Position numbers and translations under genes: made by a program. DNA of 64,000 nt from Rickettsiales bacterium (GTDB lineage: Bacteria > Pseudomonadota > Alphaproteobacteria > Rickettsiales > RI-342), in assembly GCA_044368015.1 (NCBI GenBank), contig JBIPLF010000004.1, forward strand, positions 246 through 64,245. Direction: 5' to 3'. How positions within the stretch are numbered: the stretch's first letter is position 1; the number at the start of each line of letters is the position of its first letter. The notes below the pieces were generated by a model. That model had not been told where the DNA came from. It saw nothing but the letters and a program-made list of their open reading frames with translations, and ran no database searches. Below, piece by piece: positions 4,461-53,754 of the stretch.

Positions 4461-4511
4461 AATTAGGGCGGCCATCTGTTGCGGTTTGTCTCATTACTCG
4501 GAGGGAATCCA

Positions 4512-10565: not shown

Positions 10566-10602
10566 CGGTTGATGCTGGCGTTGTGGCGGCTATGATGCCC
10601 GC

Positions 10603-18582: not shown

Positions 18583-19366
18583 GCGGGTGAAACAGGCGAT
18601 GCAGCCCGTCGAAGAGATCCTGCGTGTGATACAGCGTGTGTTCCAGCGTTAATCCACCGGATTCCACTTTGGAGATATCTAAAATATCATTCAGCAATTC
18701 GAGCAGTTGTTCACCGGACTGATGAATGGTCTGGATCATCTCCTGTTGTTCGTCTGGCAGTCCTGCGTCCAGCAACAAGCGCGAAAGCCCCAGCATCCCA
18801 TTCATCGGGGTGCGGAGCTCATGGCTCATATTGGCCAGAAAACGGCTTTTAGACTCGCTGGCGCTTTCGGCTTTCTCACGCAGGGTGTTGGCTTCCAGCA
18901 GATGCTCTTCCAGTTCCAGCATCGTGGCTTCTGCCCGCATGGTGGCAAGTTTGAGCTTGCGGGTGTTGCGTTGCTGTTCGCTGATATCGCGGATCAGGGT
19001 CAGGGCACCCACCGCCGCTCCCCGCTCCAGCAGGGGGAGGATTTTATACTCAAACCAGCGATGTTCACGCTGGGCAGAGGCAGGTTTTTCAAGCGTGGCG
19101 ACGAAGGGGCGATGGGGGGGCGTGAGTAGGTCATGGGTGTCTTCCTCCAGCTTCATCAAATCGTCATTGTTCAGAATGGCAGGGTCCCACCCCTCCAGCG
19201 GCAAGGCTCGCAGCGCTTGCCCGACCACCTGTCCCGGACGTTTGGCACCGATCAGCTCCAGATACATGGCGTTGCATCCTGCCACCCGTCCGGCTGCGTC
19301 TGTCCAATAGACAGCGCTTGGCAGGGTGTTAACTATCAGGGAGAAGGTGGAATCGGAGAATGGCAT
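18485..19366 (-). CDS. hybrid sensor histidine kinase, N-terminal fragment (PAS + HisKA)
   Basis: Cytoplasmic PAS-like region and H-box [18 protein letters not shown]. The ORF runs out of frame about 100 nt before the ATPase fragment begins. Confidence 0.8.
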
Positions 19367-19957: not shown

Positions 19958-20842
19958 CTATCCGTTGTTGGCACGTTGTTTGTGCTCGGACGCACAATCG
20001 CGAATGTAATGTAAAAGCACTTCCTTACGGAATGGTTTATGGACAAATCCCCGCGCTCCGTAATCGAAAGCCGTCAGGATGTTGTCCAGATACCCGTGCG
20101 AGCTGAACATCACCACATAGGCATCCTTATCGGCGGCAAGGATACGTTGCAGCACGGCAAATCCGCTTTTGTCCGGGAGATTGATATCCAGAAACACAAT
20201 ATCCGGTGCATAGAGCAGGTAGTTGCCGATCGCATCCTGCGCGGTTTCGGCGGTCACCAGCCGGTAATCGTTTTTGAGTAATTGCCCGGCAATGCGGCGC
20301 GTTACCGGATCGTCCTCCACCAGCATCACATAGGGCGGCTGACGCGTGCCTCGTTGGGTGATGTTGGCCTCCAGAATATCGGGGATCATCTCCACCCCAT
20401 CCAGCAGGCTATCGGCCGTGTGCGGGCTGCGTGCGGCAACCGTCGATGCCTTGCCCTTGGTGGCAATGAGTGTGGCCGCCGCCTGCCATTCCTGTTGCAG
20501 CGCATAGAGTTTTCGGCTGGTGATGCACCAGTCACGCGTGCGTAGCGCATTGCCCAGCAGGGTGGAAAAATCGGCAAACACCTGCTTTTCAACATGGCGG
20601 CCCATCAGGATCACGTCACCGTCGCTGCACAGAAATCCGCAGCTATCGGTATTGTAAAACCCGACTCCAATAAGGTCCTGCAACAGCAGGTGAATCTCAT
20701 CCGGCGAGGCATGACGATCCATGTTATACGGGCGCAGGCCCACATGCTGCATGGTCCAGTTGCGCCAGGTGAGCGGATCATGCCGAATGGCCTCTGCAAT
20801 CTGGGCCAGCAATTCCGGAGCAGTTTCATAGCGTAAATACAT
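19958..20842 (-). CDS. response regulator: unassigned N-terminal domain + C-terminal receiver
   Basis: C-terminal REC (VMLVEDDPVTRR...IVFLDINLPDKSG...GARGFVHKP). The N-terminal ~150 aa have no motif I recognise. Paralogue of 20961..21839. Confidence 0.8.
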   Translation of the reverse strand: MYLRYETAPELLAQIAEAIRHDPLTWRNWTMQHVGLRPYNMDRHASPDEIHLLLQDLIGVGFYNTDSCGFLCSDGDVILMGRHVEKQVFADFSTLLGNALRTRDWCITSRKLYALQQEWQAAATLIATKGKASTVAARSPHTADSLLDGVEMIPDILEANITQRGTRQPPYVMLVEDDPVTRRIAGQLLKNDYRLVTAETAQDAIGNYLLYAPDIVFLDINLPDKSGFAVLQRILAADKDAYVVMFSSHGYLDNILTAFDYGARGFVHKPFRKEVLLHYIRDCASEHKQRANNG

Positions 20843-20960: not shown

Positions 20961-21839
20961 CTATACGGTTTGTTTGGCGCGCAGATGCGGCGAACGCTGA
21001 ATGGATTCTTCCAGCTTCAGCCGGGTGAAGGGCTTGCCAACAAACCCCTTGGCCCCCATTTCCACGGCGCGCATAATGTTGGCGCGGTCGCCATTGCCAC
21101 TCAACATAACGATATAGGCATCCGGATCGATTTCGCGGAGGCGGGCAAGCAACTCAAACCCGTTGACGTCCGGCAGGTTGATATCCAGAAACAGGACATC
21201 AGGTGCCTGCGTGACATACAATGGCAGGGTGTTGTCCCCGCCATCTGAGAGTACCAACGCATAGGTTTCCGGCAGGGCTTTCCCCACCAGCTTGCGGGAG
21301 AACGCATCGTCCTCGATCACCATCACCGTGACGCGATCGCGGTTGCGGCGACGCTCGGCGAGGGTGGCAATCAATTCCGCCCGCAGGGGAGAGCGTAAAA
21401 TATCCTGTTTGCGGCGGGCACTGTTTTCCTGCGCTTTGGCGATCTGTACTTCCTGCGTCACGGCTTCCTGCGCGGCAATCTGTGCTTCGGCCAGCGCACG
21501 CAGCGGGCTGTAGCTGCGCTCAATGTCATGGAGCATGGCCAGTGAGGCAATCGGCCAGATGAGCAGATCGGAAAAACGGGCTACAATTGTTTCATAACTG
21601 CGAAAACGAATGGTTTCAGCCAGCAGGAGCACATCGCCATTGGTGAAAAAGAATGCCTGAAGCGACGGATCGTCAATCTCATTTTGCAACGCGGTAGCGA
21701 GGAGTTCCGGGGTGATGCTGTGGCGTTGATCGCAGGTTGAGAAGCGGAAATGCAGCACCCTTCCCGGTGTGCGTGCATGGTGCCAGCTATCCAGTGTCTG
21801 GCGGAAGGTACGTTCGGCATGGTCGGTGATGGTCAACAT
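20961..21839 (-). CDS. response regulator: unassigned N-terminal domain + C-terminal receiver
   Basis: C-terminal REC (VMVIEDDAFSRK...VLFLDINLPDVNG...GAKGFVGKP). N-terminal domain is paralogous to 19958..20842 and to the N-terminus of 59860..61083. Confidence 0.8.
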   Translation of the reverse strand: MLTITDHAERTFRQTLDSWHHARTPGRVLHFRFSTCDQRHSITPELLATALQNEIDDPSLQAFFFTNGDVLLLAETIRFRSYETIVARFSDLLIWPIASLAMLHDIERSYSPLRALAEAQIAAQEAVTQEVQIAKAQENSARRKQDILRSPLRAELIATLAERRRNRDRVTVMVIEDDAFSRKLVGKALPETYALVLSDGGDNTLPLYVTQAPDVLFLDINLPDVNGFELLARLREIDPDAYIVMLSGNGDRANIMRAVEMGAKGFVGKPFTRLKLEESIQRSPHLRAKQTV

Positions 21840-21962: not shown

Positions 21963-22019
21963 TTAAGCGTTTGATAATGAAACGCCTTTATCCTGAGCGT
22001 TGCAAAATGAAACGCTTAA
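21963..22019. promoter_or_regulatory. tandem imperfect palindromes (candidate activator binding sites)
   Basis: aagcgtttgataatgaaacgcc and gagcgttgcaaaatgaaacgctt: two copies of AGCGTT-N9-AACGC, 60-115 bp upstream of the sigma-54 motif. The outer 10-mers ttaagcgttt / aaacgcttaa are perfect inverted repeats. Confidence 0.4.
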
Positions 22020-22034
22020 GGGTGATCCATCCCC

Positions 22035-23432
22035 ATGTCCGACCGTATTCTCTTGGTGGAAGATGACCGTACCCAACGGCTGATGACGCAGCGTTTGTGC
22101 GAGAAGCTGATGGGGTGCACGGTGCTGACCGCGTCGCATGGGTTGGAGGCGATCGGCACGCTGGAGATGGAAGAAGATATTGCTCTCGTCCTCATGGATG
22201 TGCAGATGCCGGTGATGGATGGGCTGACGGCGCTCAAAAAAATCCGTGCCCGCCATGCGGAACTGCCGGTAATCATGCTCACTGGCTCCAGCCAGCCGGA
22301 CGATATCGTCGCCGCGATGCGGGCGGGCGCGACGGATTTCCTCCCCAAACCGGCGGATCCGGAGCGGTTGCGGGTTTCCATTCAGAACGCATTGCGGTTG
22401 CAGGCGCTCGCCCGCGAGGTAGCGCGGCTCAGTCGCGGACAAGGAGAGGCGATTGGCTTCCGCGACCTCATCGGGCATGACAAGGGACTCGCCGACATCA
22501 CCCGCATGGGACGCAAAGCGGCGTTTGCATCCATCCCGGTGCTCATCAGTGGCGAAACCGGTACGGGGAAGGAGATGGTCGCCCGCGCCATCCATGGCGA
22601 AAGCCCCCGCGCTCGCGGGCCGTTTGTGGCGGTGAATTGCGGGGCGATCCCGGAAAAACTGGTGGAAAGCACCCTGTTTGGCCATGAAAAAGGCGCCTTT
22701 ACCGGAGCGATTGCCAAGGCGCTCGGTAAATTCCGCGAGGCCGATGGCGGAACGATCTTCCTCGACGAGGTAGGCGAGCTGCCGCCGGAAGCGCAGGTGA
22801 AACTGCTGCGCGTGCTTCAACAACACGAGGTGGAGCCGGTGGGGGCCGGGCGCACGGTGCCGGTCAATATCCGGGTGATTTCCGCCACCCATCGCGACCT
22901 GCGCGAGGATGTCGCATCCGGGCGCTTCCGCGAGGATCTCTATTTCCGGCTGCATGTGCTGTCGCTCGCCATGCCGCCGCTGCGCGAGCGGGCGGAGGAT
23001 ATTCCCCCACTGGCCAGCCATTTGCTGGACCGCTTTGCCACCAGCGATCGGCTACCCTTCAAACGCCTGTCACCGGAAGCGAAAGCATTACTGCAACGCT
23101 ATGACTGGCCGGGCAATGTGCGCGAACTGGCCAACACCCTGCACCGGGCGCTGGTACTCTCCGAACATGAGGTGCTGGAAGCCACCGATTTCCCCGAATG
23201 CCACCGCACCCCCTCACGGATGGAATCTCTGCCTGCCCTATCCGGGGGAGCATCCCCCTCCACTCCCCTGTTCCTCAATGCCGATGGCACGCTGAAACCC
23301 TTGCGCCAACTGGAGGAAGAAGCGATCCGCTTTGCCCTCTCCCACACCAAGCAGAACGCCACACAGGCCGCCGCTGCGCTGGGTATCGCCAAATCCACGC
23401 TGTATCGGCATTGGGGGAAAGAGACACTGTGA
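22035..23432 (+). CDS. sigma-54-dependent response regulator (NtrC family: REC + AAA+ + Fis-type HTH)
   Basis: REC (ILLVEDD...[13 protein letters not shown]...KP), Walker A GETGTGKE, intact GAFTGA, C-terminal [19 protein letters not shown]. Confidence 0.9.
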
Positions 23433-29206: not shown

Positions 29207-30418
29207 GTGAGCGCAGAGATTCCCACCACATGGAAGGACGCCGTGGAGCGGTTTACCGCCTTTCCCGATGCGCACACCCGCGAGGCTCTGGCCACCGCCT
29301 ACACGGATCACACCACCCGGCATCCCACCGATGCCCATCGCCATCTGCTGCATTACCTGCGGATGCGCGTTACGAACGAACCCGCACAACGCTATCTGGT
29401 AGAAGGCAGCCTGTCCAACCACGTCATTGCGGAACATCTGGCCCCTGCCATTCTGGTATTGGCGGAGATCACCCAAAATGCCGCTCCCTCCGTGCAGGAG
29501 GCCCTGAAAGCGGGGGAGAAAGTCCATCTTGTCAGCAACGAAACCCCTCTCAGCCATCGCATGGCACCGGCGGGGATGAGTCATTCGGACAAACACCTGC
29601 TGGGTCTTTTCTTACCGTATGATCTAACCTCACCGCTGGTCGCCATTCAGGCGCAATTCACACAGGAAGCGCCCAATAAGGAGCTACCGGATCTGCGTAT
29701 CTCACACATGCTGACCACCCCGCCGCAAACGCTCAAACAACCCAACACCTGCTACTTCTACTCGATCAGCAATCTGGTGATGGATCGCAGCGATGTCCCT
29801 GAAGCGGTGAAGAAAACCAAAGCCTATCACGAACTCATTATCCGCTCGGCGGAAACCCTTTCCGGCCATTTGGGGGAACCTGCTCCAAAAGGCTTGCCTG
29901 AGGGGCTGAAACCGGTTCAAAACCACGGCATTGAACGCGCCTGCACGCTCTCGCCTCTGCGCTCCACCCTGCAAGGTCAGGAAGGATTTGCCGAATGGAT
30001 GCACGCACATCACCCGGAGATTAAAACCGAGTACCTTCAGCAATCGCCCCATGCCGCCAAAGCCTGGGGGCTTTACTATCTGGGGCAGGAAGGCATCAAG
30101 GGGAGCAACACGCCGAATTTGGTCGCGCATATCCACTGCAGAAATGGCGCGGAAGTCAGAGGGTTTATTCCGGGCGCCGAAGATACGGAGCAGGGCAAAC
30201 GGGGAGCCGCCGGCCTGATGGTCTCCTATGAATACCCGCTGGACGAACGCACAAGGCGTCAGAATCAATCGGTATACCGCACAAAAAGCGTTCCCGTTTC
30301 ACGAAGAGCCGAACAGGAAGACCAACTAGCGCGGGATCACATGCACGGCGAAGCAGGCAAGGGACTCCCCCCCATTGCCGTCACGCTGCAAGAGAACAGA
30401 AAACGGCTCAGTGCATAG
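29207..30418 (+). CDS. divergent malonyl-CoA decarboxylase (MCD) family protein
   Basis: FYSISN, TLSPL and HCRNGAEV...GLMVSYEYPLDE...NQSVY resemble the conserved MCD motifs (FYSISN, TLSPIPGF, FHLGNGA...GIMVNYLYxL...NHEAY). The rest is highly divergent. GTG start. Confidence 0.5.
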   Translation: MSAEIPTTWKDAVERFTAFPDAHTREALATAYTDHTTRHPTDAHRHLLHYLRMRVTNEPAQRYLVEGSLSNHVIAEHLAPAILVLAEITQNAAPSVQEALKAGEKVHLVSNETPLSHRMAPAGMSHSDKHLLGLFLPYDLTSPLVAIQAQFTQEAPNKELPDLRISHMLTTPPQTLKQPNTCYFYSISNLVMDRSDVPEAVKKTKAYHELIIRSAETLSGHLGEPAPKGLPEGLKPVQNHGIERACTLSPLRSTLQGQEGFAEWMHAHHPEIKTEYLQQSPHAAKAWGLYYLGQEGIKGSNTPNLVAHIHCRNGAEVRGFIPGAEDTEQGKRGAAGLMVSYEYPLDERTRRQNQSVYRTKSVPVSRRAEQEDQLARDHMHGEAGKGLPPIAVTLQENRKRLSA

Positions 30419-30431
30419 GGAAAAAACAGGC

Positions 30432-30508
30432 TGGCGGTCCCGGCGCGATTCGAACGCGCGACCTTTAGATTCGGAATCTAACACTCTATCCAGCTGAGCT
30501 ACGGGACC
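30432..30508 (-). tRNA. tRNA-Arg (anticodon CCG)
   Basis: The reverse complement ggtcccgtagctcagctggatagagtgttagattCCGaatctaaaggtcgcgcgttcgaatcgcgccgggaccgcca folds as a 77-nt cloverleaf. It has a 7-bp acceptor stem, GTTCGAAT T-loop and encoded CCA. Confidence 0.9.
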
Positions 30509-31199: not shown

Positions 31200-32990
31200 A
31201 TGTCTATCGCCCATTCATCGCCTACGGCTCCTCTTGTTGCGGCCACGCTGCCGCTGCTGATGCAACAGATCTTCTCCGGCCGTGCCGATCAGCTTACCGA
31301 GGCCGAAGCCGAAATCACCCGTTTGCTGGCCGCCCATGGCGACGACCCCGACTTGCTCCATGCCTGTGGATTGATTCACCAACAGCGCGGCGAATGGTCG
31401 CAGGCGCGTGAATGGCTGGAACGTGCGGTAGCACTCCTCCCCCAGCACCCTGCCTATCGCTGCAATCTGGGCGCGACACTCCGCAAACTTGGCGAGGTGG
31501 ACGCCGCGATCGCCCAGTATCAGGAAGCCATTCGTCTGAAGCCGGACATGGCCGACGCGCATTTTAATCTGGGTAATGCCTACCGCGAGCAGGAACATCA
31601 CCGCGAAGCCGCAACCGCCTATCAGGCCGCGCTGGCCATCAAGCCCGACTATCTGGGCGCGCATAACAATCTGGGATTGAGCCTTGGGGCATTGGAAGAC
31701 TGGCAGGCTGCATCGCAGCATCTGCTGATTGCCCTGCAACATCGCCCGGAACTGCTGGAAACACGGGTGATGCTGGCCTCTGCCCTGCGCGAGCTGGGCA
31801 GTACGGAACGCTCCCGTGAGCAATGCCATCTGGCGCTGCGCTATGATCCTGCCTACGTGCCTGCACATCTGCAACTAGGCGCCATTGAGCGCGAAGTCGG
31901 CAATATGGAGGCCGCCAAGACGCATTTCAATGAGGCCTTGCGGCTGGACCCCGACTCGGTTTCCGCCCATTACCATCTGGCGAGCATCACCAAAACCACC
32001 GAGGAAGATCGCCCTCGCCTGCAGCATCTGGAGGCCATGAGTACGGATACCACCCTCACCGTGCGTGCCAAAAGCAGCCTGCATTTTGCGCTCGGCCGCA
32101 TGTATCACGACCTCAAGGAATACGAACCCGCCTTCCGGCATTATCAGGAGGGCAATCGCGTCTACCGCACGCTCTTAAACGTCGATCGCGCCGCCTATAC
32201 CCGCTTTATCGACGGGCTGATCGCCACCTACACGCCGGAATTTTTTGCCCGCACCGCCGGGTGGGGCAGCGACTCACACATGCCGATTCTGATTGTGGGG
32301 ATGCCGCGATCCGGCACCACGCTGGTAGAGCAGATCATCTCCAGCCACTCGCAGGTGTTTGGTGCGGGCGAGCTAAACGCCCTGAACGCCCTGCACCGGC
32401 CGATCGCCAAACTGATTGGCTCACCCGACGAACCCTACCCCAACTGCATGGAACATCTAACGCCTGAAATCGCGCAGAGCCTTGCCCAGACCTATCTCGA
32501 CCATCTGCATAAGCGCTCCGGCGGGGCCGAGCGGGTGACGGATAAAATGCCCGCCAACCTGATGAATCTGGGACTCATCGCCACGCTCTTCCCCCGTGCC
32601 AGTGTGATTCGCTGCATGCGCGATTATGAGGATAACGCCCTTTCCATCTTTTTCCAGAAATTCGCCACCGGCAACGAATTCGCCTTTGACCTAGCCGACA
32701 TCGCCTTCTGGTTTCAGGAAACCAATCGCCTCTATGCGCACTGGAAGCAGGTGCTACCCATCCCGATCTTTGAGGCCCATTACCGGCAGATGGTACGGGA
32801 ACCGGAAGTGCAAGCCCATGCGCTGCTGGAATTTTGCGGCCTGCCCTGGGAGGATGCCTGCCTGGATTTCCAGCACAACACCCGCAGCGTCCGCACCGCC
32901 AGTGTGTGGCAGGTGCGTCAGCCTATCTACACCAGCTCGCTGGAGGGGTGGAAACGCTACGAGCCATGGCTGGGTGGGCTGTGGGAATAG
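31200..32990 (+). CDS. TPR-repeat protein with C-terminal sulfotransferase domain
   Basis: About 8 TPR units (AxxxYxxAlxlxP periodicity), then a PAPS-binding 5'-PSB motif VGMPRSGTTLVEQ. Confidence 0.8.
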   Translation: MSIAHSSPTAPLVAATLPLLMQQIFSGRADQLTEAEAEITRLLAAHGDDPDLLHACGLIHQQRGEWSQAREWLERAVALLPQHPAYRCNLGATLRKLGEVDAAIAQYQEAIRLKPDMADAHFNLGNAYREQEHHREAATAYQAALAIKPDYLGAHNNLGLSLGALEDWQAASQHLLIALQHRPELLETRVMLASALRELGSTERSREQCHLALRYDPAYVPAHLQLGAIEREVGNMEAAKTHFNEALRLDPDSVSAHYHLASITKTTEEDRPRLQHLEAMSTDTTLTVRAKSSLHFALGRMYHDLKEYEPAFRHYQEGNRVYRTLLNVDRAAYTRFIDGLIATYTPEFFARTAGWGSDSHMPILIVGMPRSGTTLVEQIISSHSQVFGAGELNALNALHRPIAKLIGSPDEPYPNCMEHLTPEIAQSLAQTYLDHLHKRSGGAERVTDKMPANLMNLGLIATLFPRASVIRCMRDYEDNALSIFFQKFATGNEFAFDLADIAFWFQETNRLYAHWKQVLPIPIFEAHYRQMVREPEVQAHALLEFCGLPWEDACLDFQHNTRSVRTASVWQVRQPIYTSSLEGWKRYEPWLGGLWE

Positions 32991-33150
32991 TTTTTTTGCA
33001 TTCCTTTGCTATTTTGTCACACTTCTCCGTTAGGCTTGCCTCTTAGTAGGCGGTTGGAGCGAGTAGCAGGTGCATGATGCCACCTGTTATTTTAGAGTGT
33101 GGCGGTGAGTGTTAATGATTTGCTATCTATTTGGTGGTTAGTGTACACAG

Positions 33151-33870
33151 ATGTCAGGGACCATAGGTAAACGAGCGAAGCCGAAAGGCAAAAAGCGCCT
33201 AAGCAATATCGGTGGACCGCTGGATGAACAGCGGAACTGGTATCAGGATCGCTATCAGTATGCTCTGGTACAGCGGAACGTGCTGGCCATGGTTGCGCTC
33301 CTTTCGTTGTTTATTGCCTTGTTTGCAGCCATTACCTCTTCGCAGCTATCGCCGCAGAAGTCGGTGAAACCCTTTATTATCCAGATTGATGATAAAACCG
33401 GGATTACGCAGGCCGTTGACCCTCAAAAGTATCAGGAAATCAGCGCAAATGAGTCATTGAAACGCTATTTCATTGCCCAGTATATCCGTGCCAGAGAAAC
33501 CTACGATCCGGCAACCAATTCGCACGACATTGAATCAGTTCGGGTCATGTCATCACCGGAAGTGTTCGAGGGGTACAAGGAGTATATATCGCCCAAAAAC
33601 CCGGAAAGCCCGGTCAACCTCTTTGAAGATAAATCTAAGCGGGTGATTCGCTTTAAATCTCTTACTTTCCTGATGCCAGACGTCGCACAAGCCCGCATCA
33701 GCGCGGTTGTGCAGGGGGACAAAGAGCGTAAATATCCAGAGGAGCACCGGATAGTGGTCGTAAAATTTGAGTTTGTTAAACTTGACCTGAATCTGCAGGA
33801 GCGGTTGATTAATCCTCTCGGATTCAGGGTTGTCAGTTACCGCGAGAGCGAGGAGATCATATCCCAATGA
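33151..33870 (+). CDS. virB8: type IV secretion system protein VirB8
   Basis: WYQDRYQ, a single TM helix and YFIAQYIRARETYD are VirB8 family signatures. AT-richer than the flanks. Confidence 0.85.
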   Translation: MSGTIGKRAKPKGKKRLSNIGGPLDEQRNWYQDRYQYALVQRNVLAMVALLSLFIALFAAITSSQLSPQKSVKPFIIQIDDKTGITQAVDPQKYQEISANESLKRYFIAQYIRARETYDPATNSHDIESVRVMSSPEVFEGYKEYISPKNPESPVNLFEDKSKRVIRFKSLTFLMPDVAQARISAVVQGDKERKYPEEHRIVVVKFEFVKLDLNLQERLINPLGFRVVSYRESEEIISQ

Positions 33871-34697
33871 AGCATCTCATAGCCATTTGTCTGTCGGTTC
33901 CGTTGCTTTTAGCAGCCCAGCTCACGCATTCTGCCCACGCGCAGGAGATGCTGCTCCCTGCTGTTTCTGCTCCGGTTGTATCGGATAGCCGTATTCGAAC
34001 GCTGGTGTATAACCCAAACGAGGTATACAAAATCGTTGCCCACTACGGGTATCAGTCCAACATTGAGTTTGGCGTGCGCGAAGATATCCAGACGATTTCC
34101 CTAGGCGATCAGGTAGCATGGCAGGTAGTGCCATCCGGACGCTTCCTGTTCATTAAGCCGATGGAATCGCAGGCTCGCACCAACATGACTGTGGTCACTT
34201 CCAAGCATGTCTATCAGTTCGATTTGACCGCTCGCCCGGCAGAGAATGCAGTAGACGAAGAGCTCTCTTATGTGATTCGCTTCTTTTACCCAGAAGCCGG
34301 CACTCAGAACCCAACTCCAGCGCCATCCTATGCCGAGCCTGCACTCCCTCAGCCATCTGCACCGCTTGCGACCAATATCGCCATGGCGTCCCCTTCGCCC
34401 TCTCCAGCGATTGGTGGGGGGACCCCTTCCTACAATTTCCAGTACACGCTTTCGGGCCGGACCGCTTTTGCACCCGAACGGGTGTTTGATGATGGTACTC
34501 ACACTTATTTTCAATTCTCCAGCGGCACCATTCCTCAACTTGCAACCGTGGATGCGCAGGGCAAGGAACAACCCCTGCAATACAATGATACGGGGGATTA
34601 TGTCGTTGTCCCCACCGTCGCAAGCCAGTTCACGTTGCGTTATGGCGGCGGTTTGGTCTGCGTCTTTAACGAAACCATGCAGCCGGGCAGGATGTAA
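33867..34697 (+). CDS. virB9: type IV secretion system protein VirB9
   Basis: Signal peptide, then IRTLVYNPNEVYKIVAHYGYQSNIEF...TNMTVVTSKHVYQFDL (VirB9/CagX/TrbG pattern). ATGA overlap with virB8. Confidence 0.85.
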   Translation: MKHLIAICLSVPLLLAAQLTHSAHAQEMLLPAVSAPVVSDSRIRTLVYNPNEVYKIVAHYGYQSNIEFGVREDIQTISLGDQVAWQVVPSGRFLFIKPMESQARTNMTVVTSKHVYQFDLTARPAENAVDEELSYVIRFFYPEAGTQNPTPAPSYAEPALPQPSAPLATNIAMASPSPSPAIGGGTPSYNFQYTLSGRTAFAPERVFDDGTHTYFQFSSGTIPQLATVDAQGKEQPLQYNDTGDYVVVPTVASQFTLRYGGGLVCVFNETMQPGRM

Positions 34698-34702
34698 TCG
34701 CC

Positions 34703-35893
34703 ATGGTAGACTCCCCTCCAGAATTTGACGCCATAGAGCAGGAAGAGGATTCCTCCTCGCTTGATAAACGCAAAACGGTTGTTTCTGCGGCCCCCAATCG
34801 CACGTTGTTGATTCTTGCGATCGTCGGTGCCGCGTTTATTTTCTTCCTGTACCTGATCTTTAGCGGCGGGGACAAGAAGGAAAAAGAGCTGGTGGATGAC
34901 GCACTGAAGGCACAAAAAGTAGGCGATAAAGACGCAGACGCCTTACCTCCGCCTATAGCAGCCCCTCTTCCGCCGCCACCGCCGCCGCCGCCACCGCCGC
35001 CGCCTCCACCGCCGCCGGTTTCTCCGGATCAGGCTGGCTTTGATGCTGTGGATCCGAATTTGGATGCACGTCGGGCACGTCTCAAATCTGAAATGATGGT
35101 GGTGGGCGGATCCATTTCTGATAAAGCCTCCAAGGCATTCTCCGGTAAATCGGAAGATAAAAAGGAAGTCGTCTCCACCCCAGACGACCCCAACAGCAAA
35201 TTTGCGGAATCGGTCTATAAAACAGAGGCCGAGCAGGCTGAAGCCACCAGTATTGGCGACCTGGATCGTACCATTGCCGAAGGCAAGGTGATTGATATTG
35301 TGTTGGAAACAGCGATCAACACTTCGTTACCCGGAACGCTGCGCGCCATTGCTGCCCGCGATATTTATGCAGAACAGGGCCGCAATATCCTGATTCCAAA
35401 AGGGTCGCGGATGATTGGCAAATACAACACAGCGGTACGTCGTGGACAAAACCGTGTCTATATTGTGTGGACACGCCTCATCCGTCCGGATGGCATCGAT
35501 GTCCCCATTCAGTCGGAGGGGACCGATCAGCTCGGTCGCTCCGGTACAGAGGGCATTGTGGATGCAAAGTACATGGAGATCTTCTCCAGCGCGCTACTGG
35601 TCAGTGCTGTGACCATCGGTGCGGCCTACGGGGTGGAACAGATTGTGGATGATCCTCAAACCACGCGCCGCCGTTTCAGTGATGGTAGCAGCGAACAGAA
35701 CGGCTCGCCCACTGCCTTAGCGGCTCAGGACAATCTGGAGCGTATCGGCAAAACCGCCACCTCACTGATCGAAGAATTTATTGATCTACGACCGGTGATC
35801 CATATCCCTCAGGGCACGCAGATGAAAATCTTCGTAAACCGGGATCTGGTATTTCCAGAGAGCATCCTGAACCGTGTGCGCGTGATTCCATGA
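34703..35893 (+). CDS. virB10: type IV secretion system protein VirB10
   Basis: N-terminal TM helix, 16-Pro tract, and a C-terminal TrbI/VirB10 barrel (GKVIDIVLETAINTSLPG...ILIPKGSRMIGKY). Confidence 0.85.
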   Translation: MVDSPPEFDAIEQEEDSSSLDKRKTVVSAAPNRTLLILAIVGAAFIFFLYLIFSGGDKKEKELVDDALKAQKVGDKDADALPPPIAAPLPPPPPPPPPPPPPPPPVSPDQAGFDAVDPNLDARRARLKSEMMVVGGSISDKASKAFSGKSEDKKEVVSTPDDPNSKFAESVYKTEAEQAEATSIGDLDRTIAEGKVIDIVLETAINTSLPGTLRAIAARDIYAEQGRNILIPKGSRMIGKYNTAVRRGQNRVYIVWTRLIRPDGIDVPIQSEGTDQLGRSGTEGIVDAKYMEIFSSALLVSAVTIGAAYGVEQIVDDPQTTRRRFSDGSSEQNGSPTALAAQDNLERIGKTATSLIEEFIDLRPVIHIPQGTQMKIFVNRDLVFPESILNRVRVIP

Positions 35894-36885
35894 GTTTTAC
35901 TGCTCTTGAAACCTACCTTGCGCCACTGGAAGCCCTGTTTGCGATGGAAGGGGTGACGGAGATTTCCATTAACCGCCCACTGGAAGCCTGGGTGGAGCAA
36001 TATGGGGAGATGTCTTACCACGCCATTCCGCAATTTGACCTCGACCATCTGAAATCGCTCGGCCGCCTGATTGCGCAATCCACCGAACAGATGATCAGCG
36101 AAGAACGCCCGCTGCTCTCGGCCACACTTCCGGCCGGGTTCCGTATTCAGGTGGCTTTCCCACCCGCATGCGAGCCGCGCACGGTGTGTATGTCCATCCG
36201 CAAACAAACCATTCTGGATTTCGATCTGGATAGGTACGAAGCGCTGGGTGCTTTCGAAATGACCGCCGTCAGCAAGCAGGACAATAAGGTAGACCTTGAG
36301 CTGCGTGATCTGCTCAATAAGGGGGAAATCAAAGCCTTCCTGATTAAGGCGGTGCGGGCACGCAAAAACATGATCATCAGCGGTGGTACTTCGACCGGTA
36401 AAACCACCTTCCTCAACGCCGTGCTGAAAGCCATTCCGGAGAAGGAACGCATCATCACCTGCGAGGATGCCCGCGAGGTAGAGCTAAAACATATTCCCAA
36501 CCGCGTGCATCTGTTGGCCTCACGCGGGGATCAGGGGCGTGCTCAGGTGACCATGCAAGATCTCATCGAGGCCTGTTTGCGCTTGCGTCCGGATCGTATC
36601 ATCGTGGGTGAGTTGCGCGGGAAGGAGGCCTTCAGCTTTCTGCGGGCCGTGAATACCGGCCATCCAGGGTCCATCACCACCATCCACGCCGATGCCCCCA
36701 TGCTGGCGATTGAGCAACTGGTGCTGATGCTGATGCAGGCGGGTATGGGCATCATGCGTGATCAGATTATTGCCTATGTAAACAACGTGATTGATATTGT
36801 GGTCCAGCTGAAACGCGGCGATAAAGGACGTCGCTTCGTGTCCGAAGTGTTCTTTAACGATGGACTGCAACAAGGATTTCATTGA
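35890..36885 (+). CDS. virB11: type IV secretion ATPase VirB11
   Basis: Walker [54 protein letters not shown]. Confidence 0.9.
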
Positions 36886-36887
36886 TC

Positions 36888-37724
36888 ATGACTCAGGTCG
36901 CCGTTGGTTCCCTTACCATCGCCAATCATCTGCCGTTTGTGTTGCTGGCGGGTCCCTGCCAGATGGAATCCCGCGACCACGCTTTCATGGTGGCCGGGCA
37001 ATTAAAAGAAATCACCGAAAATCTGGGGATAGGGCTGGTTTACAAAAGCTCTTTCGACAAGGCTAATCGTACCAGCCTGCATAGCCAGCGCGGCATTGGT
37101 ATGGAAAAAGCGCTATCGGTGTTTGAAGCGATCAAAAAAGAGCTGCACCTCCCCGTGATGACCGATGTGCACGCGCCCGACCATTGCGCCGAAGTGGCCT
37201 CGGTGGTGGATGTATTGCAAATTCCGGCGTTCCTGTGCCGTCAGACCGATCTGCTGGTTGCCGCCGCCCAAACCAAACGCGCCATCAACATCAAAAAAGG
37301 GCAGTTTCTGGCCCCGTGGGATATGCGCCATGTGGTACAGAAAATGCGCGATTCCGGGAATGATCAGGTAATGGTGTGCGAGCGCGGCGCCAGTTTTGGC
37401 TACAACACGCTGGTCACCGATTTCCGATCTCTGCCCATTATGGCGGAAACCACCGGTCAGCCGGTAGTGTTCGACGCCACCCATTCCGTGCAGCAACCCG
37501 GAGGCATGGGCGGTGCATCGGGTGGTGAGCGGCGCTTTGTCCCCATCCTTGCCCGTGCGGCGGTGGCGGTGGGGATTGCAGCCATTTTTATGGAAACGCA
37601 CGAAAATCCGGATGCTGCCCCCAGTGACGGCCCTTGCATGGTACCGCTGGCGGATATGCCCAATTTGCTGGCTGATTTACAAGCACTGGACCGCCTGACC
37701 AAAGCGCGTGCCGTCGCCGCATGA
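36888..37724 (+). CDS. kdsA: 3-deoxy-8-phosphooctulonate (KDO-8-P) synthase
   Basis: [35 protein letters not shown] lies 2 nt after the virB11 stop. Confidence 0.9.
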
Positions 37725-39493
37725 GCACGCTCGCGCACCATCATCTGGAAGGGGTGCGCCGCTGGATGCAACAGCACGGATTGCATGCCTATCTGCTGCC
37801 GGTGAATGACGCGTTTTTCAGCGAATACCCCCCCGCCAGCGAGCGTCGTCTGGAATGGCTCACCGGTTTTAGCGGATCGGCCGGGATGCTCGCCATCACC
37901 GCGCAGAAAGCCCGCCTGTTTGTGGATGGGCGCTACACGCTTCAGGCGGCAAACGAAGTCGATTCCCATTTCTTTGAGGTGGTCAACAGTGCCTCCCTAC
38001 AACCGGAGGTCTGGTTGCGGGATGTACTGTCGCCGGGGATGCAGGTGGGGCTTGACCCCACACTTTTCAGCATACGCAACGAACGGCGCATCCGGCATGC
38101 CCTCAAAGAAGTGCGGATTGCCACCCTCTCCATTCCGGAAAACCCGATCGACCTCTTATGGCAGGACCGCCCTGCCCCGCCGCACAGTCAGGTGGAGGTG
38201 CATCCCATCACCTATAGCGGCAAGATTGTGCCGGAAAAACGCACCGATCTCTCCTGCCTGCTACAGGAACGCCACGCCCATGCCCTGTTTATCGCCGCGC
38301 CGGATTCGGTGAACTGGCTGCTGAATATCCGGGGACGCGACGTGCCCCATACGCCGATCGCGCAACTTCATGCGATGTTGTACATGTCTGGCGAGGTCGC
38401 ATTGTTTGCAGAGAGCGACCGTATTCCAGAGGATGTACGCGAGCATCTGGGGGGTGCGGTGCATCTGCATGATCCATCGGAATTGCAACAAAAGCTCGCC
38501 GATATGGCCGGGGAGCGGGTATGGGTGGATGACGCCCATACCAGCGCATGGATCAAGCAGATGTTAAAAGACGTCAAAGCCTGCATTCTGTACGATCCTG
38601 ACCCTTGTCAGGCGATGAAGGCCGTCAAGAATCCCATCGAGCTGGAGGGGATGCGCAACGCCCATCGGCGCGACGGAGTGGCGCTCACCCGCTTTCTACA
38701 CTGGCTGGAGCAGCAAGTAACAGCGGGCGCGCCGCTCTCGGAATTATCGGTGGCAGAGCGGCTCGAAGCTTTCCGCCGTGAGGATCCCCTGCTGCGTGAT
38801 CTAAGCTTCCCCACCATTGCCGGGTTTGGCGCCAACGGGGCGATTGTCCATTACCGGGCGAGTGAGGCCTCCAATCAGGCCATCCGCGCTCCGGGGTTGC
38901 TGCTGCTGGATTCCGGCGGTCAATACCTGAACGGCACCACGGATGTCACCCGCACCATCGCCATTGGTACGCCCAGCGAGGAACAGAAACACGCCTATAC
39001 CACGGTGCTGAAAGGCCATATTCAACTGGCCATGGCCATATTCCCGCAAGGAACCTGCGGCTCGCAACTGGATGTGCTGGCGCGTGACCCGCTCTGGCGC
39101 GCCGGGATGGATTACGATCACGGCACCGGCCATGGGGTTGGCTGTTATCTGAGCGTCCATGAAGGGCCGCAACGCATTTCCAAACGGGGGGGCGATGCGC
39201 CGCTGGAAGCGGGGATGATCCTCTCCAACGAGCCGGGTTATTACCGGGAAGGCGCGTTTGGCATCCGGCTCGAGAATCGGGTGTCGGTGGTGCCTGCCCC
39301 CCTCCGGGGCTTTCTGGCGTTTGAAACCCTGACGCTCGCGCCGCTGGACCTCTCTCTGATCCTGTCGGAATTACTCTCGCCGGAAGAGAAACGCTGGGTT
39401 CGCGACTACCATCAACGGGTCTATAGCCTGCTGGCCGATCACCTGCCCCACGACACCGCGCAGTGGTTGGAACAGATCGCTCGCCGGAGCTAA
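37721..39493 (+). CDS. pepP: Xaa-Pro aminopeptidase (M24B, aminopeptidase P family)
   Basis: 590 aa with metal-ligand motifs [25 protein letters not shown] overlap with kdsA. Confidence 0.8.
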
Positions 39494-39575
39494 AAACTAC
39501 AACACGCCGCGATCATTTAACCGTTTTGTAAGAAAAACCATGCTATACTGATAGTGAACAGTATAGGTATCTTCT

Positions 39576-43560: not shown

Positions 43561-44844
43561 CTACGCCGCCAACGCACTCTTACGTTGCTCAATCCGTGCT
43601 TCAATCTCCGGACGGAAATGGCGGATAAGCCCCTGAATCGGCCAGGCGGCGGCATCGCCGAGTGCACAGATCGTATGCCCTTCGATCTGTTTGGTGAGCG
43701 CATGGAGCTGGTCGATCTCCGCCAGTTCAGCATCGCCTCGCACCATGCGATCCATGATGCGTGACAGCCACCCGGTTCCCTCGCGGCAGGGGGTGCATTG
43801 CCCACAGGATTCATGCATGTAGAATTTCGAGAGCCGCGCAATCGCCCGCACAATATCGGTGGATTTATCCATCACAATCACCGCCGCCGTTCCAAGACCG
43901 GACTGCACGGCGCGCAGCGAATCGAAATCCATCAGCACCGTATCGCAGGTGGTTTTAGGCAACACCGGCACCGAGGAACCGCCGGGGATGACGGCCAGCA
44001 GATTATCCCATCCACCGCGCACCCCGCCCGCATGTTTTTCAATCAGTTCCTTAAGCGGAATGCCCATTTCCTCTTCGACATTGCAGGGCTTATTCACATG
44101 GCCGGAAATGCAGAACACCTTGGTTCCGGTATTGTTGGGGCGGCCGATTTTCGCAAACCACTCCGCTCCACGCCGCAGAATCGTCGGCACCACGGCGATA
44201 CTCTCCACATTATTGACGGTGGTGGGGCATCCCCACACCCCGCAGGCGGCTGGGAAAGGCGGCTTCAGACGCGGCTGTCCCTTTTTGCCTTCCAGGCTTT
44301 CGATCAGCGCGGTTTCCTCGCCACAGATATAGGCCCCTGCCCCGCTATGGACGTAGATATCGAAGTCGAACCCGCTGCCGCAGGCATTCTTGCCGATCAG
44401 TTTCGCCGCATAGGCCTCGTCGATGGCGGATTGCAGCGCCAGAATCTCCTGATAAAATTCCCCGCGCACATAGATATAGGCGGCTTTGGCGCGGATCGCA
44501 AAACCCGCAATCAGGCAACCTTCCACTAATTTATGCGGGTCGTGACGCATCATGTCACGGTCTTTACAGGTACCCGGCTCGCCCTCATCGGCATTGACCA
44601 CCAGATAGGAAGGCCGCCCGTCCGACTGCTTGGGCATGAAGGACCATTTCATCCCGGTGGAGAACCCCGCCCCTCCGCGACCGCGCAGGCCCGAAGCCTT
44701 CACCTGATCGATGATCCATTCCTGCCCCTTGGTGAGAATCTCTTTAGTGCCATCCCAATCACCACGCGACTTCGCAGCCTGAAGGCCCGCGCTCGCCTGC
44801 CCATAGAGATTGGTAAAAATACGATCGGAATCGGAAAGAGCCAT
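43561..44844 (-). CDS. nuoF: NADH-quinone oxidoreductase subunit F (51-kDa, FMN/NADH-binding)
   Basis: [19 protein letters not shown] site and the 4Fe-4S motif [12 protein letters not shown]. Confidence 0.95.
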
Positions 44845-44877: not shown

Positions 44878-45135
44878 CTAACGTAACACCCATTCACCGG
44901 TTTCACGGATGGCAGCGTACATGGCATCTGGGGCGAGATCAACTCCTCCCGGCCATGTCACGGCTCCGCCCTCAATATAGGCCTCTGCAAATGTGGCGGG
45001 ATTCCTCAAACTGGCAAAAACACCCGTCAGATGCGAAGGCTCAAAACGTACGACCCCCCTCGTTCCATCCAGAAAAGAGACCTGAAGCTCAAGGGGGGGG
45101 GACACCATTATTTCACGTACATCCCAATACATCAC
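44878..45135 (-). CDS. DUF2442 domain protein
   Basis: 85 aa. The C-terminal GGAVTWPGGVDLAPDAMY resembles the DUF2442 signature. GTG 45135 or ATG 45132 start, 1 nt after the preceding stop. Confidence 0.65.
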   Translation of the reverse strand: MMYWDVREIMVSPPLELQVSFLDGTRGVVRFEPSHLTGVFASLRNPATFAEAYIEGGAVTWPGGVDLAPDAMYAAIRETGEWVLR

Positions 45136-45136
45136 T

Positions 45137-45409
45137 CTACTCCAGTGGGGGAACGGGTTTTGGAAGCTGTTTCGCCTGACAGCAAGCCCAGTTGTCCAAC
45201 AGCTCCTTCTGATGCAATTCAGCCCAATCCATGATCAGTTCTTGTGCACGACGGGGCACATTGCCTTCGATACATCTTAAATTTTCAATGTCAAATGTCG
45301 CTTTATGACCACCATATTCCGCGTGGAAGTGTGGCGGAGCATGATCGTTAAAGAACATCCGGATCACAATACCAAAGAATTGGCTGATAGTGGGCATCGT
45401 TTTTTCCAA
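45137..45409 (-). CDS. DUF4160 domain protein
   Basis: MPTISQFFGIVIRMFFNDHAPPHFHAEYGGHKATF matches the DUF4160 N-terminal signature. The likely real start is ATG 45397, since the track start 45409 is TTG. Confidence 0.7.
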   Translation of the reverse strand: MEKTMPTISQFFGIVIRMFFNDHAPPHFHAEYGGHKATFDIENLRCIEGNVPRRAQELIMDWAELHQKELLDNWACCQAKQLPKPVPPLE

Positions 45410-45655
45410 TCATGAGGGCAATCCGTTTTCATCATACCCCAGTATTTCGTCCGGAGAGCGTGGATCCAGTACAGGAAGGGCTGCACACTCCGCTCCAATC
45501 GCCAGAATCCGCCGGATGCGCTCTTTCCGCCCCTCCTCTTCCTGAATGCTTTTCGTCAAGGCTTCTTCGATCGCCTGCTCCACGGAAATACCACGCATGA
45601 TCGCCAACGCCTCTGCCATTTTTGGAATGGCTGGGTTCTCGATATGGAGTTCCAT
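45410..45655 (-). CDS. vapB: VapB-type antitoxin, Rv0623/PSK-operon transcription factor family
   Basis: 81 aa. The layout (N-terminal ribbon region, charged linker, C-terminal ECAALPVLDPRSPDEILGYDENGLPS) parallels M. tuberculosis VapB30-type antitoxins. Starts 1 nt after the nuoE stop. Confidence 0.75.
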   Translation of the reverse strand: MELHIENPAIPKMAEALAIMRGISVEQAIEEALTKSIQEEEGRKERIRRILAIGAECAALPVLDPRSPDEILGYDENGLPS

Positions 45656-45656
45656 G

Positions 45657-46292
45657 CTATTTCACCTCTTTAAGCGTCGTGCGGCCGCCTTCGGGTGCCG
45701 AAGTCTGACGATCCACCTGCGGGCCGGGTTTGGGCAGCGTCCCCTGTTTCAGGCTATCGAGAATCTTGACCGTGGTTTCGGCGGTTAGGTCCTCGTAGAA
45801 CTGGATGTAGTTGGCATCGTCGGCGTCGTGATGGTTGATCTGCATCATGGGTGCATTGACGCAGGCCCCCAGACATTCCACCTCTGCGAGGGTAAATTTG
45901 CCGTCGCCCGTCGTTTCGCCGGGCTGAATACCGAGATGCCTCTCACAGGCCTCCATCACCTGATCCGACCCACGCAGCCAACAGGGCGTAGTGGTGCAGA
46001 CCTGCACAAAATGCGTACCCACAGGCGCCAGATTATACATGCTGTAGAAACTGGCCACTTCGTACACGCGGATATAGGGCATCCCCAGCATCTCGGCGAT
46101 GGTGTCCATCGCGGCGCGGGGAATCCAGCCGCCATGCTGGCGTTGCGCCAAGTCGAGCAGCGGCATCACTGCGCTTTGCTGAAACCCTTCCGGGTATTTG
46201 GCAATGAAATGCTCCGCCCGCTTTAGGTTTTCAGGCGTGAACGCGAAGGTACGGGGTTGCTCAAAAGCAGCTGGGGCAGCGGAATGGGCCAT
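45657..46292 (-). CDS. nuoE: NADH-quinone oxidoreductase subunit E (24-kDa, 2Fe-2S)
   Basis: Thioredoxin-like fold with the Cys pattern VCTTTPCWLRG ... ECLGACVNAP. Confidence 0.95.
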   Translation of the reverse strand: MAHSAAPAAFEQPRTFAFTPENLKRAEHFIAKYPEGFQQSAVMPLLDLAQRQHGGWIPRAAMDTIAEMLGMPYIRVYEVASFYSMYNLAPVGTHFVQVCTTTPCWLRGSDQVMEACERHLGIQPGETTGDGKFTLAEVECLGACVNAPMMQINHHDADDANYIQFYEDLTAETTVKILDSLKQGTLPKPGPQVDRQTSAPEGGRTTLKEVK

Positions 46293-52530: not shown

Positions 52531-53754
52531 ATGAAGCCTGTCATGGAATCCGCTTCGGGCGCAGATATTTCCTTTTTCATTACGACCCTTGCCTATCAGC
52601 ATCCGGAATGGGTCATCCACACCCCCGATGGCGATCTGCGCATTACGCGTACAAAAGGAGCCGTGCTGCTGAATGGTGAGGCTTTCCCATCCGATGGGCT
52701 GACGCTTCCCTCTCCGGCGCAGTTTGAATTACGCGATCAGGATCTCACCTTTGACGTGGACCTGCCACCCGGCACCAGGCTGACCGCGTCAGGGCAGGTC
52801 TCTCTGCCGGGACATCCGGTGACAGAGGCCGATCAACGCCCCTCCGGGTTGAGCTATCTCTTATCCGGGGAAGCCGAAACCCCGGGGATTTATTTTGCAG
52901 GAACGCATCTGAACGGTTCCAGTCTGGACGCCGTGTATCAAACCTGGGACGATTTGAACGATGTGCTGCCGTTTATCCCCGTTTCCCTGTATCAGCCGGG
53001 ATCGCTTGGCGATGGCGTTCTGGAAGCCGTATGGGTTACCCATCAGGCACGCAAGCACACCGCTAGCAACCTCTTCACCATTGCCGGGCATTCGCTGGGG
53101 GGCTGCATTGCGGAAACCGCATTTGCGCTGGAAACATTGAATGATATCGAACGTGCCTTGCAGCTTCCCCTCACGGGACAATATGCCTGCTATCAGGAGC
53201 TGGAACGTTTCTACATGAAGGACCCAGATGCCCTGAGCGTTGCAAACCTAAACCGTTTTCTGCGCACCAACCTTGCAGAGCGCTGCGCTGCGATTGAAGC
53301 GGCCCTGCCTTCTGATGCGCTGGATGCGTATTTTACGGAACATCCGCTGCGGGCGCATCTGTTTGAAAGTCTGGGAAGCACGGAAACACTCGCCGCCATG
53401 GGTATGTCCGATGCCGTAATCGACACCGTACGCCACCGTGCCGATACCAGTGGAAGTCTGGCGCTGGATATCGCAGAGAGCGTGTTTCAGTATCGCGGAC
53501 TCACCCAGCCCCACATTACCAGCAATCGTCAGGTGATTTCCCTCAGCTATTTTGCCGATCCTATCGGCGCGCATATGCCGCCAGAATTATTAGCGGCTGT
53601 TGCAGGAATGGAAGGCAGCACCCTCAGCATTACCCCGCACATACCAAGCTGGAGAGATTGGACACGGGAGGCCATCGACACCAGCGCAACCTGGCTGGGG
53701 CATATCCCCGGTACTATTGCCAAATTACCGGTTGGCTCTTTCTGGTCACGCTGA
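52531..53754 (+). CDS. hypothetical protein with lipase-type nucleophile elbow (alpha/beta hydrolase-like)
   Basis: Only recognisable feature is the FTIAGHSLGGCIAE (GHSLG) motif mid-protein. No signal peptide. Confidence 0.35.
   Translation: MKPVMESASGADISFFITTLAYQHPEWVIHTPDGDLRITRTKGAVLLNGEAFPSDGLTLPSPAQFELRDQDLTFDVDLPPGTRLTASGQVSLPGHPVTEADQRPSGLSYLLSGEAETPGIYFAGTHLNGSSLDAVYQTWDDLNDVLPFIPVSLYQPGSLGDGVLEAVWVTHQARKHTASNLFTIAGHSLGGCIAETAFALETLNDIERALQLPLTGQYACYQELERFYMKDPDALSVANLNRFLRTNLAERCAAIEAALPSDALDAYFTEHPLRAHLFESLGSTETLAAMGMSDAVIDTVRHRADTSGSLALDIAESVFQYRGLTQPHITSNRQVISLSYFADPIGAHMPPELLAAVAGMEGSTLSITPHIPSWRDWTREAIDTSATWLGHIPGTIAKLPVGSFWSR

Follow-up and report, generated by a model that had tools for sequence, protein, structure and literature searches.

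The DNA stretch analyzed here (hereafter the window) comprises 64,000 nt of contig JBIPLF010000004.1 from a Rickettsiales bacterium (GenBank assembly GCA_044368015.1) and carries, at 33151-39493 of the forward strand, six tightly packed open reading frames (ORFs) in the order virB8, virB9, virB10, virB11, kdsA and a pepP-like gene for an M24 Xaa-Pro aminopeptidase (Table 1). The first four genes encode homologues of subunits of a type IV secretion system (T4SS); the product of kdsA was identified as 3-deoxy-8-phosphooctulonate synthase (NF003543, 431 bits; TIGR01362, 401 bits). The junctions were read directly in the sequence. The virB8 and virB9 genes share an ATGA overlap (33867-33870), the TAA of virB9 is separated by 5 nt from the virB10 ATG at 34703, virB10 and virB11 again overlap by ATGA (35890-35893), the virB11 TGA (36883-36885) is followed by the dinucleotide tc and the kdsA ATG at 36888, and kdsA and pepP share a third ATGA (37721-37724), the spacing along the block being −4, +5, −4, +2 and −4 nt. 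The series of overlapping or abutting genes from virB8 to pepP, described in an earlier note on this DNA, was thus found at every junction. An alternative in-frame TTG start of kdsA lies at 36882; the ATG at 36888 matches the gene call of the Joint Genome Institute (JGI), and the KdsA N-terminus aligns with the KdsA starts of relatives. As kdsA begins only 2 nt past the virB11 stop codon, a kdsA promoter of its own has no space outside virB11.

Table 1. Features of the virB8-to-pepP block and its borders (positions in the 64,000-nt window).
Feature	Position	Strand	Description
Putative promoter region of the unit	32991..33150	+	160 bp, intergenic, 43.8% GC, 5′ of virB8
virB8	33151..33870	+	239 aa; PF04335
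virB9	33867..34697	+	276 aa; PF03524, TIGR02781
virB10	34703..35893	+	396 aa; PF03743, NF038091
VirB10 poly-proline repeat	34970..35017	+	three tandem 15-nt units; repeat search
virB11	35890..36885	+	331 aa; NF010475, TIGR02788
kdsA	36888..37724	+	278 aa; NF003543, TIGR01362
pepP-like M24 Xaa-Pro aminopeptidase	37721..39493	+	590 aa; Creatinase_N, Creatinase_N_2, Peptidase_M24, M24_C
Inverted repeat, possible unit end or operator (weak assignment)	39543..39566		perfect 8 bp, 8-nt loop, 50 nt past pepP

All four VirB proteins are full length and have kept their motifs. VirB8 reaches 167 bits against PF04335, with profile positions 3-213 of 213 aligned, and its translation comprises a basic N-terminus, a single transmembrane helix (approximately residues 44-63) and a periplasmic VirB8 domain. 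VirB9 (PF03524, 180 bits; TIGR02781, 212 bits, slightly below the cut-off of 217.7) begins with a Sec signal peptide, MKHLIAICLSVPLLLAAQLTHSAHA, as judged by eye, and has a Pro/Ala/Ser linker. VirB10 (PF03743, 163 bits; NF038091, 203 bits, slightly below the cut-off of 220) combines a cytoplasmic N-terminus, a transmembrane helix, a poly-proline tract and a C-terminal TrbI/VirB10 barrel domain, and its residues 9-385 align with TrwE of R388 (7o3j). The Pfam scores of these three proteins all lie far over the Pfam cut-offs. The poly-proline tract is encoded by the three 15-nt units listed in Table 1, which amount to three overlapping 18-nt copies of CCGCCGCCACCGCCGCCG, and slippage between strains could change its length. 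VirB11, a member of the hexameric traffic ATPase family, clearly exceeds the cut-offs of both of its profiles (NF010475, 528 bits vs. 389; TIGR02788, 389 bits vs. 250); its C-terminus is of normal length, and the alignment to Brucella VirB11 (2gza) revealed the Walker A motif (GGTSTGKTT), the Asp box, the Walker B motif (DRIIVGE) and the His box. The four genes are, in other words, intact virB8, virB9, virB10 and virB11.

This intactness bears on the possibility that the block is an orphan remnant, i.e., that virB4, virB6 and virD4 have been lost and the four genes left behind are decaying or have been reused for another role in the envelope. Full-length frames with an intact signal peptide, transmembrane segments and ATPase motifs argue against such decay, as do the branch lengths. 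When ranked among the environmental relatives by the distance to the plasmid outgroup, VirB8 took place 30 of 38, VirB9 place 1 of 38, VirB10 place 15 of 42 and VirB11 place 15 of 44; these distances are ordinary, and therefore give no sign of relaxed constraint or rate acceleration. Furthermore, two strain-level assemblies have identical VirB8 and VirB11, while PepP differs between them at 2 of its 590 residues. No exact copy of the window VirB10 (396 aa) occurs in the protein collection, although the other contig encodes a VirB10 of equal length.

To place the block phylogenetically, we compared the VirB proteins with their homologues in public records, where the names of metagenome-assembled genomes (MAGs) are labels given by submitters. 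VirB11 has thousands of homologues, the best of which, besides the protein itself, are 70-74% identical and all belong to uncultured bacteria, named, where a name is given, as Rickettsiales, Alphaproteobacteria or Pseudomonadota bacterium. The VirB11 scan over one genome per GTDB species yielded 57 loci, approximately 40 of them in environmental MAGs at 64-73% identity and the remainder in Deianiraea and several Rickettsia at 60-62%. The identity to environmental relatives is 70-74% for VirB11, 38-56% for VirB10, 31-48% for VirB9 (at comparable lengths) and 36-46% for VirB8. VirB8, VirB9 and VirB10 are approximately 27-36% identical to their Rickettsia counterparts in full-length alignments, and the best plasmid identity among at least 5000 matches was 51.6% for VirB11 (rhizobial plasmids) and 39% for VirB10. 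A neighbor-joining tree of VirB11 (Kimura distances, 64 taxa, 326 columns, 200 bootstraps, five plasmid systems as outgroups) clearly split the plasmid systems from all others (100% bootstrap) and recovered a clade of classical Rickettsiales (99.5%), to which an environmental clade including the window is sister (92.5%). Within the environmental clade, the window VirB11 has no supported sister (19%). The earlier note had asked for a phylogeny that would separate rvh-like genes (rvh, Rickettsiales vir homologue, being the chromosomal T4SS of Rickettsiales) from genes of a degraded conjugative element. The position of VirB11 beside classical Rickettsiales and apart from plasmids answers in favor of the former, thus indicating that the block belongs to an rvh-related chromosomal lineage.

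The gene content around the block reinforces this conclusion. Neither the window nor its flanks have a relaxase, integrase, replication or partition gene among the genes annotated with Pfam, and the search for border direct repeats or remnants of insertion sequences (IS) returned only short, chance-level matches in the window. Hence, the hallmarks of a conjugative plasmid or an integrative and conjugative element (a relaxase, a coupling protein, integrase or replication genes, flanking repeats) were not found here. The rest of the T4SS is likewise absent from the neighborhood. In tblastn searches with queries from relatives (E ≤ 0.1), VirB2, VirB4, VirB6 and VirD4 gave no match in the window, virB8 and virB9 are present in single copies only, and no ORF of at least 20 aa that might encode a VirB7-like lipoprotein occurs in the region 5′ of virB8 (32991-33150). 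The flanks were covered by the Pfam-annotated gene calls of a 111,716-bp contig that carries the exact VirB11 (JGI metagenome 3300059473, also at NCBI), where the 10 kb past either end of the window contained genes for housekeeping and signalling only and no other T4SS gene. The block is therefore isolated within approximately 84 kb in total. These data bear out the claim, made in the earlier note from the letters of the window alone, that further virB genes, VirD4, a relaxase, pilin genes and plasmid functions are missing; the remaining virB/virD4 genes do not lie immediately outside the window either, at least for 10 kb on each side. A separate observation concerns the gene at 4479-5273 (+), whose GC content at third codon positions is low (GC3, 0.562) and whose product, of 264 aa, contains a weak prepilin N-methylation motif (PF07963); this protein is type IV pilin- or pseudopilin-like, and not a T4SS pilin.

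The comparison of gene order with relatives clearly showed what is unusual about this locus. Of the 57 GTDB loci, 53 have virD4 3′ of virB11 and in the same orientation, while a KdsA or PepP homologue within 10 kb of virB11 was found in none of the 57, and the virB11-kdsA junction is also absent at the closest VirB11 and KdsA homologues. Thus, the almost universal adjacency of virB11 and virD4 has been lost here, and kdsA-pepP stands in its place. The relatives themselves are diverse. Many environmental ones possess one contiguous locus (virB2-virB4-virB6-virB8-B9-B10-B11-virD4) with a large VirB6 and without virB5, in housekeeping surroundings, and others show a Rickettsia-like split of the vir genes; the flanking genes of the virB loci vary among them. 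As an example of the contiguous type, locus L003 comprises two virB2 genes, virB4 and a virB6 of 755 aa, lacks virB5, and continues with virB8-B11-virD4 amid housekeeping genes. The two TrbC/VirB2-family genes with which it opens (809-2397) are of some interest in themselves, as the second, of 373 aa, contains at least two further VirB2-like segments and resembles a tandem fusion of pilins. In Deianiraea and in one MAG locus (L046), virB11 stands alone among unrelated genes. In Deianiraea vastatrix, this gene sits between a glutamine-synthetase-like gene and uvrD, and its frame of 421 aa (10001-11266 of locus L047) exceeds all other VirB11 compared by approximately 90 C-terminal residues.

The closest relative found is a Logan contig, L072 (SRR33375164_80539), with 56% identity over 281 aa in VirB10, the best match of this protein, and 74% in VirB11. 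There, too, virB11 is not followed by virD4, and convergent small genes and ruvA are found instead. The closest KdsA (76%) comes from another contig of the same run, L063, where kdsA lies 3 nt behind pyrG; we assume that both contigs belong to one organism. At the two closest KdsA loci, pepP is not a neighbor of kdsA in either case. The window lineage and L072 may therefore have in common that virD4 is detached from virB11, and the capture of kdsA-pepP behind virB11 appears to be specific for the window lineage. On the other side of the block, directly upstream of virB8, lies a gene for a TPR-repeat and sulfotransferase protein of 596 aa (31200-32990, +). A 33%-identical homologue directly follows virD4 in a related MAG locus (L028, 12850-14169, −), and its position beside a T4SS in both cases may be a coincidence because such proteins are common.

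The orphan remnant introduced above can now be judged from both sides. In its favor, some 84 kb lack any other T4SS gene, virD4 is gone from its near-universal place, and a transcriptional tie to essential housekeeping genes could keep the block expressed even without a T4SS function. Yet it is usual in this lineage for rvh genes to be scattered (PMC3518464), and together with the intact frames, the ordinary branch lengths and the strain-level identity of VirB8 and VirB11, this makes a decaying or reused remnant unlikely in our estimation.

The base composition was examined next to the same relatives. The GC content is 48.9% in virB8, 54.2% in virB9, 54.5% in virB10 and 54.9% in virB11 vs. 58.1% in the window, and the GC3 of virB8-B10 (0.57-0.585) falls short of the average over 50 window ORFs (0.659; standard deviation, sd, 0.069) by approximately 1.1-1.3 sd. 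Hence virB8 and virB9 are indeed AT-richer than their surroundings, as the earlier note had observed, but only modestly so. The high GC of the window, which had been considered as being at odds with its Rickettsiales-like organization, is no anomaly, since related environmental loci span 42-60% GC.

Such a composition might be expected if the block had recently arrived upstream of kdsA by lateral transfer, with a degraded element of conjugative or integrative type or another, lower-GC bacterium bearing rvh as the donor. The GC and GC3 of virB8-B10 lie under those of most neighbors, and the GC deficit relative to the flanks exceeds that of 46 relatives by approximately 1.6-2.3 sd for virB8, virB10 and virB11; moreover, the flanking genes are not conserved among relatives, the window VirB proteins lack a close sister, and a tRNA-Arg(CCG) gene (30432-30508, −), the sole RNA gene detected in the window with Rfam, is located 2.6 kb upstream of the block. 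However, the GC3 of virB8-B10 falls inside the native range, being level with that of AsmA (0.562), and virB11 and kdsA have nearly equal values (0.654 and 0.649). The plasmid homologues are far more distant than the chromosomal Rickettsiales-type ones, and the transfer would have left behind no relaxase, integrase, replication or partition gene, virD4, flanking direct repeat or IS remnant. A genomic island at the tRNA-Arg gene was considered and rejected, given that the 3′ end of the tRNA gene faces away from the block and that neither an integrase nor a repeat accompanies it. Altogether, we regard a recent lateral arrival as distinctly improbable, although another rvh-bearing lineage could still have been its source. 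The tRNA gene itself lies between a gene for a 403-aa orphan protein (29207-30418, +), which shows a weak match to the C-terminal domain of malonyl-CoA decarboxylase, and a GNAT acetyltransferase gene.

Because the virB11|kdsA junction is unique among the relatives examined and the source is a metagenome, one may also suspect a chimeric contig in which a T4SS fragment has been joined to an unrelated kdsA-pepP pair. Several data speak against such an artefact. The order and spacing of the genes are the same on the 111,716-bp contig, for which JGI called the genes independently; exact VirB8, VirB11, KdsA and TypA are each on record on two contigs, and a contig of 81,679 bp is known from a second assembly at the strain level. 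A chimera would hardly produce two complete frames of normal length 2 nt apart, with a normal VirB11 C-terminus and a normal KdsA N-terminus, and the composition shifts gradually over the junction. An assembly artefact is thus highly improbable.

As for expression, we infer that virB8-B11, kdsA and pepP likely form one transcription unit starting in the 160-bp region 5′ of virB8. Given the spacing of −4 to +5 nt and the absence of a convincing internal terminator, co-transcription is the simplest reading of the sequence. The promoter scan returned five promoter-like sites vs. 6.1 expected from shuffled sequences, none of them 5′ of virB8, where no match to the sigma-70 consensus was found either, and the terminator scan returned 16 terminator-like sites vs. 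9.6 ± 3.7 in shuffles, i.e., no clear excess. Three candidate hairpins folded no better than shuffles (z = −0.1, −0.7 and −1.3). This is the case both for a hairpin with a T-run at the end of the gene upstream of virB8 (32964-32999) and for the inverted repeat past pepP (z = −0.7). The earlier note had proposed that the T4SS genes are co-expressed with a gene for the synthesis of 3-deoxy-D-manno-octulosonic acid (KDO). Co-transcription is indeed likely from the spacing, but a functional tie of the T4SS to the synthesis of KDO and lipopolysaccharide (LPS) is unsupported. Equally tight gaps (5 nt or less) separate 12 of the 34 same-strand neighbor pairs of the window, including such unrelated pairs as AsmA-UvrD and GT4-NtrY; tight packing is therefore general in this genome, and the virB11-kdsA junction is weak evidence of functional coupling. 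Operons of rvh that are co-transcribed with housekeeping genes have been described in both Wolbachia (ribA-virB8, wspB) and Ehrlichia (sodB-virB3; PMC3518464).

Taken together, the results lead us to conclude, with a probability of roughly 0.7, that the block encodes four subunits of a P-type (VirB/VirD4-like) T4SS of the chromosomal lineage that includes rvh, the other subunits being encoded elsewhere. VirB8, VirB9 and VirB10 would serve as structural subunits and VirB11 as an ATPase of an envelope-spanning VirB-type secretion machine, while VirB2/3/4/6 and VirD4 would be encoded elsewhere in the genome, as in Rickettsiales, all of them together forming a working machine. The virB11-kdsA junction most probably arose by a chromosomal rearrangement in a tightly packed genome, as suggested by the position of kdsA 3 nt behind pyrG in L063 and by the convergent genes behind virB11 in L072. 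Analogy with free-living basal Rickettsiales, which carry rvh and for which a use in bacterial killing or in defense against protist grazing has been proposed (PMC9352585, PMC11077975), suggests antibacterial or anti-predator effectors as possible secretion substrates. The earlier assignment of the T4SS to a host-interaction type is not supported: the genes surrounding the block have a free-living look, including those for a protoglobin chemoreceptor of the methyl-accepting chemotaxis protein type, polyhydroxyalkanoate synthase, homoserine dehydrogenase, 5-enolpyruvylshikimate-3-phosphate synthase and many histidine kinases, and for environmental relatives, the same literature proposes killing and protist defense (PMC9352585, PMC11077975).

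Several points weigh against this interpretation. First, the rest of the T4SS was not found in approximately 84 kb, so that a dispersed but complete system is inferred. Second, the VirB11 tree was built by a distance method with only five outgroups. Third, the AT excess of the virB genes is larger than usual: the GC of virB8 minus that of its surroundings is −9.4 points vs. a mean of −2.0 (sd 3.2) in 46 related loci, and that of virB10 is −3.8 vs. +3.2 (sd 3.1), which would be compatible with a relative of lower GC as the source. Fourth, with neither a promoter nor a terminator detected, the boundaries of the operon are tentative. Finally, the best matches of TypA and KdsA give no clear assignment of the organism to Rickettsiales. 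The identity of TypA is 82% to that of the MAG GCA_041749475.1, 73-78% to those of Rickettsiales-labelled MAGs and 71-73% to those of cultured Rhodospirillales, and KdsA is 72-73% identical to that of Azospirillum; as far as these sequences go, the organism would be only a deep-branching alphaproteobacterium.

There is a bolder way to read the loss of the virB11-virD4 link. The window lineage, and perhaps L072 too, might have dispensed with VirD4 altogether and placed an rvh-type VirB core in an essential operon for envelope biogenesis, that of kdsA, where it would be expressed constitutively with LPS synthesis. This idea draws on the disappearance of virD4 from its near-universal position in two lineages and on the four genes being intact and evolving at normal rates; we regard it as a long shot. 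If true, a free-living bacterium would possess a T4SS of the Rickettsiales type that is independent of a coupling protein.

The remainder of the window has a chromosomal character, its other large ORFs encoding such housekeeping proteins as MutS, TypA, Lon, LptF/G, NuoE/F, NtrY, UvrD and AsmA. The nuoF (43561-44844) and nuoE (45657-46292) genes (both −) form an isolated pair with ntrY on one side and a class-Ib tRNA synthetase gene on the other, and three small genes lie between them (approximately 44878-45655), encoding DUF2442, DUF4160 and PSK_trans_fac/antitoxin-like proteins. A hybrid histidine kinase gene is apparently split at 17350-19366 (−) into one ORF encoding PAS and HisKA domains (18485-19366) and another encoding HATPase_c, receiver and Hpt domains (17350-18582); the two overlap by approximately 98 nt in different frames, which may reflect a frameshift, a sequencing error or a genuinely split gene. 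Two paralogues lie in tandem at 19958-20842 and 20961-21839 (−); their products (294 and 292 aa) each end in a receiver domain (residues 172-280), and no Pfam family matches their N-terminal halves. Besides the orphan next to the tRNA gene (29207-30418, +), genes at 52531-53754 (+) and 21963-23021 (−) also encode proteins with no or only a weak Pfam family, the three being of 352-407 aa. Those at 29207 and 52531 had been put forward as possible effectors in the earlier note, and nothing found here speaks for or against such a role.

What was found is an rvh-related chromosomal T4SS of environmental Rickettsiales-like bacteria, known in kind and unusual in its local gene order. Its interest lies in what it tells about rvh organization prior to obligate host association and outside of it. 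Among environmental relatives, the arrangement varies from a contiguous virB2-to-virD4 locus to fully scattered genes, and the window genome is intermediate, in that even the conserved virB11-virD4 link is broken and the core vir genes now probably lead an operon that includes an essential LPS gene. Should other islets exist in this genome, it would be useful for dating the fragmentation of rvh; should they be absent, it would represent a rare system of the rvh lineage without a coupling protein. Neither outcome would change the current understanding of the T4SS mechanism.

In Rickettsia, Wolbachia, Ehrlichia and Anaplasma, the canonical rvh islet is virB8-virB9-virB10-virB11-virD4, located apart from virB3/B4/B6, and the system is further marked by duplicated virB4, virB6, virB8 and virB9 and by the absence of virB5. 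The window resembles this islet in that virB8 to virB11 follow one another in identical order and direction on a chromosome, with housekeeping genes around them and no virB3/B4/B6 within approximately 84 kb, which is consistent with a scattering of the genes over several islets. It departs from it in lacking virD4, with kdsA-pepP instead, a difference that the earlier note touched on only briefly; in having no second virB8 or virB9 nearby, whereas Rickettsia loci contain an upstream inverted virB9 paralogue; and in its host, which, unlike those named, has approximately 58% GC and a free-living gene set. The Brucella VirB and Bordetella Ptl systems are effector T4SSs that work without a coupling protein and are encoded in contiguous operons including virB4. 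The window VirB11 matches that of Brucella (2gza) at 213 bits only, a much more distant match, but these systems provide a precedent that a virB set without virD4 can be functional. With conjugative plasmids of the MPF_T class (rhizobial pAt/pSym, IncN, Xanthomonas), the window shares the gene families and the virB8-B11 order. The plasmid loci, however, carry virB5, a relaxase, a coupling protein and replication/partition genes, none of which the window has, and they form a separate clade (100% bootstrap) with at most 51.6% identity in VirB11 and 39% in VirB10.

Most similar are the chromosomal T4SS loci of environmental Rickettsiales MAGs, including those of Mitibacteraceae and Athabascaceae, which are free-living (Schon et al. 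2022, PMC9352585). Many of these loci are contiguous from virB2 to virD4, unlike the window with its virB8-B11 only, and L072, where virB11 is likewise not followed by virD4, differs in having convergent genes and ruvA where the window has kdsA. It is nevertheless with the environmental loci that the window shares the closest sequences, the GC range (42-60%), the housekeeping flanks and a gene content of the free-living type.

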